Assembly: GCA_038064435.1 (NCBI GenBank)
Contig: JBBTTC010000004.1
Location: 3,615 to 67,614 of the forward strand
DNA: 64,000 bases
From: Patescibacteria group bacterium
GTDB lineage: Bacteria > Patescibacteriota > Minisyncoccia > Phycocordibacterales > JACOZG01
Direction: 5' to 3'
Below the pieces are notes generated by a model, which was not told where the DNA came from, made no database searches, and saw only the letters and a list, made by a program, of their open reading frames with translations. The translations under genes were made by a program, and so were the position numbers. Of this stretch, positions 9,949 to 41,468 are shown piece after piece (within the stretch, counting starts at the first letter, position 1; every line of letters begins with the position of its first letter).

Positions 9949-10681
9949 TTAGATTGAAAAAAAAGTTGAGGGCAAAACCGAGCGCCAAGAAAGGCGCAAA
10001 CGGCACCTCCGCCTTAATTGTAGAATATCGTCCCACAGCGAGCAATGCCAAGCCCACACCAGCCCCGCTCCAAAACGACCAAACCATGGCACCTAAGGCG
10101 CCCGGCCAACCAAGAAGAAAGCCGAGGGCGAGGGCGAGTTTGGCGTCGCCCAAACCAAGCCAACGGCCGCGCGAACCCGCCCACAACAGAGCAAAAAATC
10201 CGGCCCAGCCAGCGCCGGTGGCCAAATACCACCAGCGATCGGGTTGAACTAGAGCATAAATTAAGGCTAGAGCGATAAGTAAATACACCGGCCCATCGGG
10301 AATAATTTGGTGCCGCCAATCATAGACTACGATCACAACGATCAAACTCATTACCAACCACCAAAGCAACCACCACCAATTAACTCCGGCCGGGCCGGCC
10401 GGAAATTTGCTGGCCACGGCGGCAAAGAGCGCCGCCGTGGCCAGCTCCACCAGCGGGTACTGCCAAGAAATTTTAGCGCGGCAGTAACGGCAACGGCCGC
10501 CCAAAAACAAAAAACTGAAAAGTGGTACCAGATCATACCAGGCGAGTTGCTGGCCGCAGGCCAAGCACAGCGATCGGCCGGCCACCGTGCGCCCGGTATT
10601 AAGTCGGTAAACAACAACATTCAAAAAACTGCCAACAATCAAGCCAAGGATAAACGTAAATACCAAAGTCAATTCCACCAC
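9932..10681 (-). CDS. pilD: prepilin peptidase (A24 family)
   Basis: N-terminal CxxC...CxxC zinc motif and polytopic membrane domain typical of PilD. Confidence 0.85.
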   Translation of the reverse strand: MVELTLVFTFILGLIVGSFLNVVVYRLNTGRTVAGRSLCLACGQQLAWYDLVPLFSFLFLGGRCRYCRAKISWQYPLVELATAALFAAVASKFPAGPAGVNWWWLLWWLVMSLIVVIVVYDWRHQIIPDGPVYLLIALALIYALVQPDRWWYLATGAGWAGFFALLWAGSRGRWLGLGDAKLALALGFLLGWPGALGAMVWSFWSGAGVGLALLAVGRYSTIKAEVPFAPFLALGFALNFFFNLNVFFF

Positions 10682-10713
10682 CCCCTCATTCTATCGCTTG
10701 CCAGCGCTAATCT

Positions 10714-10740
10714 CACTGTCAAGGACGATCCTTGACAGTG
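10714..10740. repeat. REP-like 27-nt palindrome cactgtcaaggacgatccttgacagtg (copy 1)
   Basis: 12-bp perfect stem with 3-nt loop; identical copy at 11438..11464; overlaps the 3' end of the RAYT ORF. Confidence 0.85.
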
Positions 10741-11405
10741 GAATACTCGATCCAATCGGAAACGAATTCCTGAAACTCATGCGCTTGATTAAAGTAATCT
10801 GGAAAATTTTTGTTGCCCGACAAGATTGAATCCGATGGTCGGGGCCTATCTCTATAGTAGGCGTAACTTGAATATTCATATTTATCAAGAAACTGTTGAG
10901 CAAATCTGGCGTCAATTATTATCTTGCTCTCCCAATTATGCGGATCAACTGTTTTCACGGGATTAAGATGAATATACGCAAAAAGATATTTAAGATACTC
11001 GTTATTATCAATATGGCTAGCTTTAAAAGTACCCTCGAACAAACTACCGCTTCGATTCTGCTTTTTATTGAAGTACATCGAGTATCCAGTTAAAAGCTTT
11101 TTCATAAAAATTGTCACACCATTATCGTCTTTTGCCCTTACCAATAAATGAAAATGATTGGGCATTAAACAGTAGGCCCCAATATCAACCATTTTTTCGC
11201 CGAACGATCTTGACCACAGATGGCTAATTGTCAAGGACGATCCTTGCCAGTCGCTGAGATGCACTGTTTGACGAAAATTTGCCACATGAAGCAAAACAAG
11301 AAAGCGAAGGTAGTCGCCATGGCCTAAAAATATTTGCCGACGATCGGTACCGCGATTGTAGAGATGATAATACTGGTCAGTAGCAAAAGCTGTTTTTCTT
11401 TGCAC
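10719..11405 (-). CDS. REP-associated tyrosine transposase (RAYT, IS200/IS605 TnpA-like Y1 HuH)
   Basis: HuH motif YCLMPNHFHLLV and conserved Tyr region; flanked by REP hairpins. Confidence 0.8.
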   Translation of the reverse strand: MQRKTAFATDQYYHLYNRGTDRRQIFLGHGDYLRFLVLLHVANFRQTVHLSDWQGSSLTISHLWSRSFGEKMVDIGAYCLMPNHFHLLVRAKDDNGVTIFMKKLLTGYSMYFNKKQNRSGSLFEGTFKASHIDNNEYLKYLFAYIHLNPVKTVDPHNWESKIIIDARFAQQFLDKYEYSSYAYYRDRPRPSDSILSGNKNFPDYFNQAHEFQEFVSDWIEYSTVKDRP

Positions 11406-19788: not shown

Positions 19789-19832
19789 AAAATGTGTTAG
19801 GTTGATGATCGTTACAGAGATAATTGAGCAAT

Positions 19833-19919
19833 GGAGAGTTGGCTGAGTGGTCGAAAGCGCCTCACTGCTAACGAGGTAGGGGGTTACTCCCCTCGTGGGT
19901 TCGAATCCCACACTCTCCG
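19833..19919 (+). tRNA. tRNA-Ser (anticodon GCT)
   Basis: GGAGAGT acceptor, long variable arm, anticodon loop CTGCTAA, T-arm GGGTTCGAATCCC. Confidence 0.85.
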
Positions 19920-19925
19920 AACGCA

Positions 19926-19941
19926 GTCCGCGGCGGCGGAC
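19926..19941. repeat. GC-rich hairpin gtccgcggcggcggac (variant of the recurring 16-nt palindrome)
   Basis: Seven nt past the tRNA-Ser 3' end; related copies at 36110, 36491 and 39377. Confidence 0.7.
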
Positions 19942-20111
19942 AAGTGAGGAGAGTGAGCGAGCCAACTGCTTGGCTCGCGTTGGGATTCGAACGGCGGAGT
20001 GCTCGATTTTTATCAAAAAATCGGCACGAGCCGGTGCCCAGACCGATCCGCCTTGGGCGGAGAGAGTCGCGGGCGAATCCTACGCATTTCGCGTCAATTA
20101 AAATACACGCC

Positions 20112-20732
20112 ATGGCAAATCAAATAACACACATAGTTTTGGCAGAGAGAATATCGGATCAACTTTTTAAAAAATTTACTCGACATACATTTCTTGTGGG
20201 GACGGTTTTTCCTGATATTCGATACCTAAAAGTAATCGAGCGCGATAAAACTCATTTTAAAGGATTAACTTTGGAGGATATTTTGAACGAAACCAGTCCT
20301 TTCGTTGCTGGTATGAAATATCACAGTTTGGTCGACGAAGTTCGGGAAAAATACGTGATCGAAAAGAACATTTACCAATTTTTTCCTGCCTCGAAATTTA
20401 TCAAGCACGCCCTTAAAACCTACGAGGATGAGATCTTATACAATAAAGTTTCTGACTGGAGCGAAATCGTAAAATATTTTGACATCATTGCCGACGGAGA
20501 AATAAAACTTGTCGAGCAGTCTGACAAGCTTAAATTGTGGCATTCGGTAATTCAAGAATATTTTAAGGAATCGCCAACCGACAATTCTCGCCGGGGCTTT
20601 GTTCTTGGGATTGGATTTTCTGATGAAATTGCGAGTGAAATAAATGGACTGATTGATAAAATGCGACAAATTCCGGAGGTTCGTGAAATCATCTTAGATT
20701 TATATAATAATTGGGATTCACTCGTACAATGA
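20112..20732 (+). CDS. hypothetical protein (AT-rich island)
   Basis: 207-aa ORF in a low-GC region downstream of tRNA-Ser. Confidence 0.5.
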   Translation: MANQITHIVLAERISDQLFKKFTRHTFLVGTVFPDIRYLKVIERDKTHFKGLTLEDILNETSPFVAGMKYHSLVDEVREKYVIEKNIYQFFPASKFIKHALKTYEDEILYNKVSDWSEIVKYFDIIADGEIKLVEQSDKLKLWHSVIQEYFKESPTDNSRRGFVLGIGFSDEIASEINGLIDKMRQIPEVREIILDLYNNWDSLVQ

Positions 20733-20757
20733 CCAAATCAAATATATACTGCTTGAT

Positions 20758-20994
20758 ATGAATATAGTGACCGGAAAATATCGCCACTACAAGGGCAAGG
20801 AATATGAAGTGGTTGGCGTGGCTAAACACAGCGAAACTCTGGAAGAGCTCGTGGTCTACCGAGCTTTGTATGGCAATCACGATCTGTGGGTCAGGCCGAC
20901 TAAGATGTTTCTGGAATCAGTCGAGGTTGATGGAAAATTGATTCTGCGCTTCCAGTTTGTGGAAAATCGATCTTTCCTCGGCGCACACCAATAA
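20758..20994 (+). CDS. DUF1653-like small protein
   Basis: YRHYKGKEYEVVGVAKHSETLEELVVYRALY...WVRP resembles DUF1653. Confidence 0.55.
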   Translation: MNIVTGKYRHYKGKEYEVVGVAKHSETLEELVVYRALYGNHDLWVRPTKMFLESVEVDGKLILRFQFVENRSFLGAHQ

Positions 20995-21001
20995 AAAAAC
21001 C

Positions 21002-21196
21002 ATGAAAACTCTAAAATGCGACCGATGCGAGCACGAAGAGACGGCAGAAACATTTGAAGAATGGATGAATAAACTCAAGCCGCACTACTTCAAAGACCAT
21101 GCTGATGTGATGAAAGACTCAAGCAAAACCAAAGAAGACATGGAAAAATGGATGACCGAAAACAAGGCGAGATTTGATTCTGTCCCAACATCTTGA
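21002..21196 (+). CDS. hypothetical small protein
   Basis: 64-aa ORF with CxxC pair (CDRCEH), AT-rich. Confidence 0.35.
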   Translation: MKTLKCDRCEHEETAETFEEWMNKLKPHYFKDHADVMKDSSKTKEDMEKWMTENKARFDSVPTS

Positions 21197-21247
21197 ATTT
21201 TCGGACTGGAAACGGTGCTGGCGCGCCTTCACTAAACGACATTTAAC

Positions 21248-21931
21248 ATGACCCAAATTATCTTTAAATACGATCTCGGCAAGGACACAGAAAACTTCAT
21301 CCGTGGAACTCGGGCGAAGAATAGCTCCAAACCAACTAGGCTTCAGGAAGTATACGTCGCTCAAAACGGCACCGATTATGACGAAGTAAAAGTTAAGGAA
21401 TTTTTAGAATCATACGCAAACGAGATTTCTCTCGATCCGAATAAAGCGGTGAAAGAGCTTGAGGAAAGCTGGAAGAAGATAGAAAAAACATTTCTGCAAC
21501 GAATTGAAACCATGTTCAAAATCACTTACCCGACCTCACAAATTACCGCCTACCTCACCACCAACCAGCGTTGCACCTATAACATTCCCGAAAATTATTT
21601 CTTCGTAAATTTCACTGCCAAATCTTCTAACCACATTATCATGCATGAACTATTCCATTTTTATACCTGGTACACACTTCATGATGATCTGGTGGCAGCG
21701 GGAATAGACGAAAATCAATATAACAACATTAAAGAATCGCTTACGATTCTGCTCAACACCGAATTTCTAGAATTGATGAACGGCGCACACGATGAGGGCT
21801 ACCCTCAACACGTCGAGATGCGCGAGAAAGTACAAGAATTATGGAGCAGTTCAAAAAACATCCGGGAAGTTGCTTCCGGTGTGTTTTCCCTCCCCAACCC
21901 CAGCAACTCAAGTTCTTATTCCTCATCGTAG
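21248..21931 (+). CDS. hypothetical protein with HExxH motif (possible zinc-metallopeptidase-like)
   Basis: IIMHELFHFYTW; no other recognised similarity. Confidence 0.4.
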   Translation: MTQIIFKYDLGKDTENFIRGTRAKNSSKPTRLQEVYVAQNGTDYDEVKVKEFLESYANEISLDPNKAVKELEESWKKIEKTFLQRIETMFKITYPTSQITAYLTTNQRCTYNIPENYFFVNFTAKSSNHIIMHELFHFYTWYTLHDDLVAAGIDENQYNNIKESLTILLNTEFLELMNGAHDEGYPQHVEMREKVQELWSSSKNIREVASGVFSLPNPSNSSSYSSS

Positions 21932-36156: not shown

Positions 36157-36399
36157 ATGTTTACGGTATATATTTTACAAAATCAAGTCGGAAAATTGTA
36201 TACTGGCCAAACAAAAAACTTTGAAACAAGGCTAATCGAACATAATGTGACTGGTCATGGCTATACTGCTAAACATCGCCCATGGAAGGTGGTGCTGATG
36301 GAAAAATACCAGAATCGCACCGAAGCGATGAAACGAGAAAAATATCTGAAAACTGGGGCGGGGCGCGACTGGATAAAAAGACAATTATTGCACGTGTAG
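36157..36399 (+). CDS. small GIY-YIG nuclease family protein (UPF0213/YhbQ-like)
   Basis: VYILQNQVGKLYTGQTKNFETRLIEHN fits the GIY-YIG core; stop codon lies inside the tRNA 5' end. Confidence 0.7.
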   Translation: MFTVYILQNQVGKLYTGQTKNFETRLIEHNVTGHGYTAKHRPWKVVLMEKYQNRTEAMKREKYLKTGAGRDWIKRQLLHV

Positions 36400-36461
36400 C
36401 TCAGCGGTAGAGTAGGCGTCTTATACACGCCCGGTCCCTGGTTCGAATCCAGGCACGTGCA
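36390..36461 (+). tRNA. tRNA-Ile (anticodon TAT, predicted to read AUA)
   Basis: Cloverleaf: acceptor GCACGTG/CACGTGC, anticodon stem GGCGT/ACGCC, loop CTTATAC, T-arm CCTGG-TTCGAAT-CCAGG. Confidence 0.7.
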
Positions 36462-36490
36462 TCCTACAAAAAGACCAGTTCGATGGTAGA

Positions 36491-38947: not shown

Positions 38948-39322
38948 GGGGATGATCGGCCTCGACATTTAGTGTTGCTGGTTCGGGCAGGTCGAGTTCT
39001 CTGGATACTCGTTAAACACCGGAAAAGCATAAGTGTAAACTTATCGTCTACGGGTAGTCGGGGTGTGGCTTCGCCATATCCTGTTACCCCCTCTTTCGCC
39101 TTAGGCTAAAGAGCATCAGCGCTGGAGACTTCCGATATCTGGACGCTGGTGTTATATCTTCGGGATAGTTGGCGCGACGCCTCGGCGCGCTGGCGAACCA
39201 TAGAGGCACAGATCGGGCGGGTTTTGACTGTTCGGCCCCGCTCGAACTTAATTAAACAGTCTAAGCTTGTAGATCGCACCACTAACCCTATTTGCACCCG
39301 GGTTCGATTCCCGGCATCTCCA
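38948..39322 (+). ncRNA. ssrA: tmRNA (ssrA)
   Basis: 5' GGGGATGATCGGCCTCGAC and 3' GGGTTCGATTCCCGGCATCTCCA pair into a tRNA-like domain; directly downstream of smpB; CCA not encoded; tag frame not resolved. Confidence 0.7.
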
Positions 39323-39338
39323 CTCATTAAAACATTAG

Positions 39339-39759: not shown

Positions 39760-40449
39760 CTACCGCAAATTATCAACGTAAACCCCACCGATACCAAGAT
39801 TAGCACCATCTAATCCGATAGCATCAAAACCAGTGAAAGATGGGCCGCCGGTGAATGGTACCCAATCCGTCCATGATCCATTATTCAATTTATACCTAGC
39901 GGTCTTGTCAGCCGAACGCCACTCAATGTTTATCAAATTCCAAGTGTCATCTTCGTAGCTACCGAAGTTAACACGAGTGTCAGTGCGCGCATCGATATAA
40001 TTAACGTTGCCATTTTTATTGAAAGCTACGACGATTCGTGATGGGCCGTCCCAGGATCCCTGATACATTCCCAGTTGAACATTTTCCGAATGGAAACTTA
40101 CATAACTGGCTCGATTTTGAGTTTTTACCCAGAATGATTGCCGGCCGTCCGCCAAAGCTCTCCCCGTATTTTTAGTAATAATACTTTCGCCCATTGAATT
40201 AAAATTGCTCAGGGCTTTTGCACCCTCTTTAAACACAAGCCCCTGCGCCAACCAGCGATTCCCGTTTTCTCGATCGGTCCATCCTCCCTGACCAACAACC
40301 GATCCGTCTAAAAAAGAATTGAAATTCTCACATAACACCGCGCGACATATCTGAGACCAAAAACCTAACCAGGGCTTCGGCCTCGCCTCGACGAAAGTGA
40401 AAAAGGATAGCCCGATCACCAACGACAGTGCCAAATGTAATTTTTTCAT
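39760..40449 (-). CDS. hypothetical exported protein
   Basis: Signal peptide; 229-aa beta-rich protein. Confidence 0.4.
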   Translation of the reverse strand: MKKLHLALSLVIGLSFFTFVEARPKPWLGFWSQICRAVLCENFNSFLDGSVVGQGGWTDRENGNRWLAQGLVFKEGAKALSNFNSMGESIITKNTGRALADGRQSFWVKTQNRASYVSFHSENVQLGMYQGSWDGPSRIVVAFNKNGNVNYIDARTDTRVNFGSYEDDTWNLINIEWRSADKTARYKLNNGSWTDWVPFTGGPSFTGFDAIGLDGANLGIGGVYVDNLR

Positions 40450-40502: not shown

Positions 40503-40922
40503 CTAGTGGTGCATCCTGCCGCCCCGATCAACATGAGTAATACAAAAAAACTGTCTTTTTTGATAACCAAAAACCCTAAATAGACCCCTCTGCTCTATTC
40601 TAAAATGAAAATAGTACTGTTCGACCAACTTTTCCGGAGTGGTATTTTGCTCATGAATCATATTAAAGCTATCGGTATTTTGCCTTTCGGGCGTTATGCC
40701 ACTTTCTCTCGGAAGATTTGAGAATTGCCCCCAAGTTAGTTTCTCGATATGCCTGAGACGTGCAATAAAATTTTCAGCCTGTACTTTTGTTAAATTCCAA
40801 AATGAATAGTTCTTGTTCAGCGAGCAATCGCAAATCAAAAACAAAATCTTATCCCCCGTGTATCTTAGATCTATTTTGCTGGGCGTGATCACCTCATCCA
40901 TGACCGTATTCACCCGTACCAA
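40503..40922 (-). CDS. hypothetical protein, candidate toxin partner of the Panacea-domain gene
   Basis: 139-aa ORF 3 nt downstream of the Panacea ORF on the same strand in an AT-rich block; no recognisable domain. Confidence 0.4.
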   Translation of the reverse strand: MVRVNTVMDEVITPSKIDLRYTGDKILFLICDCSLNKNYSFWNLTKVQAENFIARLRHIEKLTWGQFSNLPRESGITPERQNTDSFNMIHEQNTTPEKLVEQYYFHFRIEQRGLFRVFGYQKRQFFCITHVDRGGRMHH

Positions 40923-40924
40923 AA

Positions 40925-41401
40925 TTACTTATTCAACAAGGGCGTATAGTATTCACCAATTGCTTTGTTGCTTATCTCTTTGTTGGAAGAATTATATGCT
41001 TCCCTCCAGGGTGTATGCGCGTGGGTGATGTCAACGAGTCGACTGGTCGAATACCCACCAAAAGCTTCCCAGACCCTTTTTAGTGTTTCTTTGTCCTCTT
41101 CAGAAATCGTACTTCTGTCCTCTTCAATAATAATAATGGCCTTGCTGCCATGTTTTTTCAGTTTGTGATAGACATTAGGAACCACTGGGCCAAACTCCCA
41201 GGCCTCAATCGGATCAGCAAAAAGGGGTTTGCCAATTTTTGCGAGAAAATAAACCTGGGCAAAATAAAGTATTTTCTGAAGCTTGAGATTGGTCACCCCC
41301 TCTCTTTCTTTGTTGTCTCCCACAACCTGTTGCGAACCCAGATAAATAAAATATTTCGCTACATCCTCGGCCTTATATAAGTTTTTTGATTGTGTGGCCA
41401 T
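40925..41401 (-). CDS. Panacea-domain (DUF4065, SocA/GepA-like) putative antitoxin
   Basis: KLQKILYFAQVYFLAKIGKPLFADPIEAWEFGPVVPNVYHKL matches the Panacea/DUF4065 core. Confidence 0.6.
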   Translation of the reverse strand: MATQSKNLYKAEDVAKYFIYLGSQQVVGDNKEREGVTNLKLQKILYFAQVYFLAKIGKPLFADPIEAWEFGPVVPNVYHKLKKHGSKAIIIIEEDRSTISEEDKETLKRVWEAFGGYSTSRLVDITHAHTPWREAYNSSNKEISNKAIGEYYTPLLNK

Positions 41402-41468
41402 CGTCGCTTACATTATACACTTTTTATTAAAATTCAATGATCACCTTTCAGAGTTGAATAATATCATC

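Follow-up and report, generated by a model that had tools for sequence, protein, structure and literature searches.

Does the toxin candidate encoded beside a Panacea gene in a groundwater Patescibacteria genome represent a new toxin family, or does it belong to one that has already been catalogued? The locus lies in the 64-kb stretch of DNA presented above (hereafter the window) and consists of two adjacent minus-strand open reading frames (ORFs): 40925..41401, which encodes 158 aa from an ATG, and 40503..40922, which encodes 139 aa from a TTG. We refer to these genes as panA and panT. The original prediction described two such ORFs on one strand, which is what we find, and proposed that the product of the second, considered unclassified, may be a new toxin family. 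This part of the proposal does not stand, since PanT has a predicted RelE/BECR fold, is homologous to PB-BECR1 and the MAG6450 family, and matches a known cluster of Panacea-associated toxins. Judging by sequence, PanT is a divergent branch of the already catalogued PanT cluster T1, a predicted mRNase, and not a new toxin family. We further propose, with somewhat better than even confidence, that panA-panT is a bicistronic type II toxin-antitoxin (TA) module in which a RelE-like endoribonuclease, PanT, is blocked directly by the Panacea protein.

The profile matches make PanA, the putative antitoxin, a clear stand-alone Panacea-domain (DUF4065) protein. Residues 41-132 match the Pfam family SocA_Panacea (PF13274) with 90.4 bits (E=1.9e-25; cutoff 25.7) over profile positions 1-112 of 113, and residues 6-155 match phrog_1281 of PHROGs (E=1e-47). 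The motif first quoted in support of this assignment, KLQKILYFAQ...PLFADPIEAWEFGPVVPNVYH, is present in the 158-aa translation. Neither Pfam nor PHROGs revealed an N-terminal helix-turn-helix, PAD1, or ZBD domain, Panacea being the only domain found. Against the NCBIfam equivalog SocA_antitoxin, PanA scores 81.4 bits, below the cutoff of 190.

As for panT, the putative toxin gene, the longer ORF reaching the TTG at 40922 would begin 3 nt downstream of panA, as had been stated. We place the start at the ATG at 40901 instead, because all 229 close homologues are ~132 aa long and start with MDE..; public gene calls agree. With this correction, panT spans 40503..40901 on the minus strand and encodes 132 aa, and a 23-nt spacer (40902..40924), read from the sequence, separates it from panA. 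The exact PanT protein and its contig (69 kb) are already on record, from a Patescibacteria-group metagenome-assembled genome of Hainich groundwater.

Profiling of the PanT family used 66 diverse relatives, and we denote the broad family profile A2. The earlier statement that the partner carries no recognisable domain is true of Pfam, in which neither the window PanT nor any of the 66 relatives finds a family even at E<=1, but leads come from NCBIfam, PADLOC, PHROGs, and structure prediction. Namely, the window PanT aligns with 91 of the 103 positions of the NCBIfam model NF046006 (MAG6450_fam) at 32.9 bits, under the curated cutoff of 40, and 51 of the 66 relatives match the same model (best, 2.5e-12). 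This related family is named after a Mycoplasma agalactiae gene and is an uncharacterised conserved hypothetical one, whose function is not known. Likewise, positions 173-276 of the PADLOC model NsnC (284 positions) match the window PanT at 6e-6 and are matched by 44 of the relatives (best, 3.5e-12). This region is PB-BECR1, a predicted RNase effector of the BECR superfamily that is closest to YafQ (Li et al. 2025, PMC12065111).

The connection to T1 comes through phages and plasmids. A tblastn search with PanA returned Panacea genes of ~35-41% identity in 196 phage and 101 plasmid records, and the genes directly downstream of those in Salmonella phage vB_SemP_Emek (Emek; gp16, YP_006560566.1), an E. 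coli plasmid, and a Legionella adelaidensis plasmid match profile A2 with 56.8, 57.7, and 60 bits, respectively. The Emek pair gp15/gp16 (YP_006560565/YP_006560566) and the Legionella PanA (WP_058461122) are listed in PanT cluster T1 by Kurata et al. (2022, PMC8832971). According to the tables of that paper, T1 is the most common of 88 PanT clusters, with ~217 entries; Table S1 labels these T1 proteins as predicted 'mRNase', and T14 and T28 are catalogued as other RelE-like clusters. The T1 rows examined in the tables are all marked 'noNTD' and 'A|T', and the window cassette fits both traits, having a PanA without an extra N-terminal domain and the order antitoxin then toxin. As in T1, a stand-alone Panacea gene lies directly upstream, across a short gap, of a gene for a hypothetical protein of ~130-160 aa. 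Yet the members of our clade, which belongs to the candidate phyla radiation (CPR), are only ~20-25% identical to the gammaproteobacterial and phage T1 proteins, and they carry H99, R109, and H123 where the latter have A, P/A, and W. The clade is also absent from the part of the Kurata table covered here (PMC8832971), which has no Parcubacteria or Patescibacteria rows. A tblastn search with PanT itself against phage and plasmid records gave no match, and a second, word-indexed search with A2 returned only the close clade. The 93-aa partner of the H. cinaedi prophage PanA, considered as a family member, proved unrelated to the PanT family in an A2 profile search. Overall, PanT belongs, as far as sequence comparison can place it, to the neighbourhood formed by T1, MAG6450, and PB-BECR1.

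What kind of protein is this? An AlphaFold2 model of PanT built from 34 homologues (pLDDT 82.8, pTM 0.77) has a strand and helices followed by a three-stranded sheet, whose strands are predicted at residues 97-101, 109-115, and 118-125. The sheet and the tail behind it (residues 96-132, from predicted secondary structure and alignment) are encoded at 40506..40616 on the minus strand. From this model, PanT is predicted to have the RelE/ParE (BECR) fold, and in structure comparison the RNases RelE, HigB, YoeB, and YafQ outscored ParE. A Foldseek search of the model against BFVD gave no significant match. RelE, YoeB, HigB, and YafQ are ribosome-dependent mRNA endonuclease toxins. PanT exceeds them in length by ~40 residues, contains an insertion at residues 63-95, and has an N-terminal strand with a DCS motif that is invariant in the CPR clade. 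Its antitoxin also differs, being Panacea and not RelB, YefM, HigA, or DinJ.

The conserved residues were read from an alignment of 186 sequences, namely 120 T1-like sequences from proteobacteria and phages and a CPR-centred set of 66 found with the window PanT profile. D125 is invariant across all 186. E72 (codon at 40686-40688, minus strand), R101, and H132 are invariant in the 120 T1-like sequences and occur in 54, 63, and 45 of the 66, respectively. Together with F21, W57, and G112, they form a group that is invariant or nearly so among the T1-like sequences and that represents the commonest residue at each position in the 66-sequence set. Invariance of R109 and near-invariance of H99 (61/66) are confined to the latter set. 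The polar residues conserved within residues 96-132 are H99, R101, R109, H123, D125, and the C-terminal H132, and in the model the conserved residues sit on strands 1 and 2 of the C-terminal sheet, at the end of strand 3, and at the chain end. By secondary-structure position, we take these to correspond to the positions of the catalytic residues of RelE, YoeB, HigB, and YafQ, which are K52, K54, R61, R81, and Y87 in RelE; E46, R65, H83, and Y84 in YoeB; and H50, H63, D67, and H87 in YafQ.

The two genes are inherited together. Scanning a single genome for each GTDB species yielded 30 loci, of which nearly all are from Patescibacteria, the cultured Minisyncoccus archaeiphilus among them. Our relatives L001-L037 include 27 distinct intact cassettes, and panA lies directly upstream of panT on the same strand in all 27, at a gap of 6-26 nt (mode, 21). 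The same arrangement is found in 5/5 distant members tested (20-32% identity), among them L039 and L043. The reciprocity used as a criterion by Kurata et al., in which the gap is <=100 nt and the partner's relatives adjoin PanA, is therefore seen in 27/27 and 5/5 cases, counting short overlaps. No intact panT without panA was found among the cassettes examined, and the original expectation of a conserved toxin-type partner tightly linked to Panacea is supported. Pairwise identities of PanA and PanT correlate across cassettes (r=0.85; Mantel, 0/5000), which indicates that the genes travel and evolve as a unit. PanA is the more conserved protein in 91% of the 351 pairs drawn from the 27 cassettes (mean identity, 68.6% versus 61.6%). 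Two loci, L032 (4001-4394) and L034 (3990-4385), have an intact panA next to a panT that one frameshift disrupts; the toxin gene may truly be decaying, or homopolymers may have been misassembled.

Composition and context point to mobility. The cassette has a GC content of 40.8%, compared with 49.8% for the whole window, and ranks in the lowest 1% of the 900-bp windows within it. The AT-rich block originally described is therefore real, but its flanks (10 kb) have 50-51% GC and not ~57%. In 23 of 25 loci, cassette GC is likewise below that of the flanks (mean, 38.1% versus 42.9%). The cassette is compositionally foreign to its chromosome, and its neighbours vary in four independent public contexts in which the pair itself is intact (signal peptidase/SmpB, ClpP/trigger factor, GroEL/LemA, and serine recombinase/HTH); both observations agree with the horizontal acquisition suggested at the outset. 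No direct or inverted repeats flank the cassette, and the tmRNA 3' end is not repeated, so an island integrated at ssrA, which we considered, is not supported. Nor did we find an empty site that would mark insertion borders: a JGI scan with SmpB gave 80 loci (best, 61% identical), none of which shares the DUF167 gene, the 229-aa gene described below, LepB, or PanAT. No CPR-clade relatives were found in the IMG/VR viral contigs. Of the distant cassettes, L043 (an SRR23258159 contig) is located amid genes for a SacI-type restriction enzyme, a DNA methylase, a KAP NTPase, and AAA_13, and L039 adjoins a DEAD/SWI2-SNF2 helicase gene.

Candidate signals for expression are found on both sides of panA. 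Read from the sequence, a TATAAT -10-like box precedes the panA ATG by 10 nt (41412..41417, minus strand), and the stretch between them lacks a Shine-Dalgarno sequence. In 26 of 27 related loci, a TATAAT or TATACT box (often TGnTATAAT) lies shortly before the panA ATG, the distance from the end of the box being 0-13 nt and mostly 6-10 nt. A simple scan for sigma-70 promoters and terminators returned nothing convincing, and the sigma-70 consensus passed over the box in the window, where the nearest -35-like hexamer stands at a 14-nt spacer. We regard the box as probably the promoter from which panAT is transcribed into a leaderless or near-leaderless mRNA. Downstream of panA, a Shine-Dalgarno-like GGGTGA (40915-40910) precedes the panT ATG by 8 nt, and GGGTGAATAC is common to the window spacer and that of its closest relative, L009. 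About half of the related cassettes (L004, L006, L008, L013-L015, L017, L019, and L022-L025) have a spacer that forms a strong hairpin (z of -3 to -6), in which a CUA just before the panT AUG base-pairs with the UAG stop codon of panA. This pairing suggests that in the hairpin cassettes the toxin is translationally coupled to the antitoxin. The window spacer (40902-40924) has no such fold (z of 0.15) and carries GGGTGA instead.

Taken together, these features are consistent with the following model. panA and panT would be co-transcribed, probably from a promoter immediately next to the panA start codon. PanT would be toxic, most likely as an endoribonuclease that shuts down translation, and by analogy with its structural relatives it would probably cut mRNA on the ribosome. 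The likely active site comprises Glu72, Arg101, Asp125, and the C-terminal His132, to which the CPR branch would add His99 and Arg109. PanA would most likely neutralise PanT through direct protein-protein binding, in the manner of type II antitoxins. Direct control of this kind is the most likely one because PanA is a bare Panacea domain, and stand-alone Panacea has been shown to neutralise toxins directly in B. choladocola and G. mesophilus (Ernits et al. 2023, PMC10440598). The module may serve to stabilise an element or to defend against phages.

Several observations weigh against this model or against the family placement on which it builds. The Pfam RelE, ParE, YoeB, and HigB models match none of the 66 relatives (E<=1), and a PDB sequence search with PanT gave no match; for this reason, the RelE assignment rests on predicted structure. 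Even there, Foldseek lists the proteins of the structure comparison again at a target-normalised TM of ~0.6, with E-values that are not significant, and the proposed mapping of conserved residues onto active sites is by secondary-structure position only. A profile of the close CPR clade scores the T1 proteins weakly, with 10-21 bits (hhalign, 42%). The alignment between clade and T1 is collinear from end to end despite this weak direct score, and the link to T1 is transitive, as it is strong only through intermediate sequences. The greater conservation of PanA than of PanT is unusual, since labile type II antitoxins as a rule show the opposite. Finally, the T1 proteins of phage Emek (gp16) and E. 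coli MOD1 were non-toxic in E. coli, and that of Clostridium cadaveris was toxic and not neutralised by its own PanA; no T1 pair is known to have been validated as a TA system (Kurata et al., PMC8832971). We keep our confidence at the level stated above because of the two non-toxic proteins.

How would the same evidence fit other explanations? The most serious alternative, which we consider possible but doubtful, is that the pair acts in anti-phage abortive infection, with Panacea sensing the infection and releasing or activating a RelE-like RNase that is otherwise inert. This scenario overlaps the TA model in its biochemistry and differs in the role of the pair and in how PanT is controlled. 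It would be in line with the lack of toxicity of T1 proteins on simple overexpression in E. coli, the greater conservation of PanA, and the restriction-modification, KAP NTPase, AAA_13, and helicase genes around L043 and L039. A sensory role for Panacea has also been proposed (Ernits et al., PMC10440598). Moreover, the PanT domain has a homologue in the effector of the Menshen defence system (NsnABC), and PanT and the PB-BECR1 part of NsnC are both structurally closest to RelE/YafQ-type toxins. Even so, the window locus is not a Menshen system, given that PanT aligns with no more of the NsnC model than its C-terminal PB-BECR1 part. The PanT domain stands alone, without the N-terminal PIN-like domain of NsnC, and would be controlled by Panacea; its neighbours are Panacea, a signal peptidase, and a secreted protein, and not NsnA (ParB-DUF262) or NsnB (ABC ATPase). 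In the window and in most CPR loci, the surroundings are housekeeping genes (lepB, SmpB, ClpP, GroEL) rather than defence genes, which, together with the lack of relatives in IMG/VR viral contigs, speaks against a defence role. The broader claim that the CPR-wide PanA-PanT clade is a trigger-activated defence or conflict module with Panacea as its sensor, and not a classical addiction TA system, we hold with the same reserve.

The remaining explanations are considerably less probable. That PanT is a catalytically inert protein of the RelE fold, for instance an accessory factor that binds RNA or ribosomes, and that the pair is no TA system at all, would account for the non-toxicity of two of the three T1 proteins assayed in E. 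coli. This is improbable, since one T1 protein is toxic and the 186 sequences strongly conserve polar residues at positions of the RNase type; the absence of intact panT without panA and the two panA genes with a frameshifted panT, even if the latter could be assembly errors, argue in the same direction. A ParE-like PanT, which would poison DNA gyrase without cutting RNA, shares the fold and is, in our view, slightly more improbable still. RNase activity is favoured over gyrase poisoning because of the homology to the predicted RNase domain PB-BECR1 and of the conserved-residue pattern, in which the family keeps Glu, Arg, and Asp and a C-terminal His at the chain end, as RNase members do; the structure comparison, in which the RNases outscore ParE, points the same way. 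Least probable of all is a type VI arrangement like that of SocAB from Caulobacter, in which PanA would be an adaptor handing PanT to ClpXP for degradation instead of blocking it. Panacea was first characterised in SocA, which has the same domain, and PanA matches SocA_antitoxin in part. That score, however, is far under the equivalog cutoff, and PanT is a RelE-fold protein unrelated to SocB. In addition, all PanA-PanT pairs that Kurata et al. (PMC8832971) examined formed stable complexes of the type II kind.

Around the cassette, the window contains genes for a signal peptidase (lepB), SmpB, and a secreted protein. Downstream of panT by 53 nt lies a 229-aa ORF (39760-40449, minus strand) with a hydrophobic, signal-peptide-like N terminus and no Pfam match on record, in a region whose GC content is also lowered (~45%). 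No relatives of this neighbour were found in a JGI metagenome scan, and the ORF is not linked to the panAT cassette in other genomes. A tmRNA gene (38948-39323; Rfam, 114.5 bits) directly follows smpB, and ARAGORN calls a tag peptide of unusual length for it (24 aa, VNLSSTGSRGVASPYPVTPSFALG). The distance between these ribosome-rescue genes and the predicted mRNA-cutting toxin is 1.2 kb; the proximity is probably a coincidence, as other genomes lack this context. Elsewhere in the window, ARAGORN calls a tRNA-Ile with the anticodon UAU (tat) at 36389-36464. Such tRNAs are uncommon in bacteria, in which AUA is usually read by a lysidine-modified CAU tRNA. Further AT-rich blocks (39-43% GC) are located at 19850-21450 and 10450-10750. 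The former begins right after a tRNA-Ser(GCT) gene (19832-19920) and contains several small hypothetical ORFs; the latter overlaps a 228-aa ORF (10719-11405) with a PNHFHLL motif, which is reminiscent of IS200/REP-type tyrosine transposases.

These results remove a false lead, as the partner of this Panacea protein is placed as a divergent branch of T1, the most abundant Panacea-associated toxin cluster and one already predicted to consist of mRNases, though still experimentally unvalidated. To this cluster, the analysis adds a predicted RelE/BECR fold with defined, conserved candidate catalytic residues and a sequence-level bridge among PanT-T1, the NCBIfam family MAG6450, and Menshen PB-BECR1. 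If the pair should prove to be a triggered module, PanT-T1/PB-BECR1 would be an interchangeable RNase effector common to TA-type loci and a multigene defence system, Menshen coupling the same effector module to a ParB/ABC-ATPase sensor, and the non-toxicity of overexpressed T1 proteins would be accounted for. This strongly conserved clade, which is spread in Patescibacteria and includes the cultured Minisyncoccus archaeiphilus, could serve for testing if T1 pairs are real toxin-antitoxin or defence modules.
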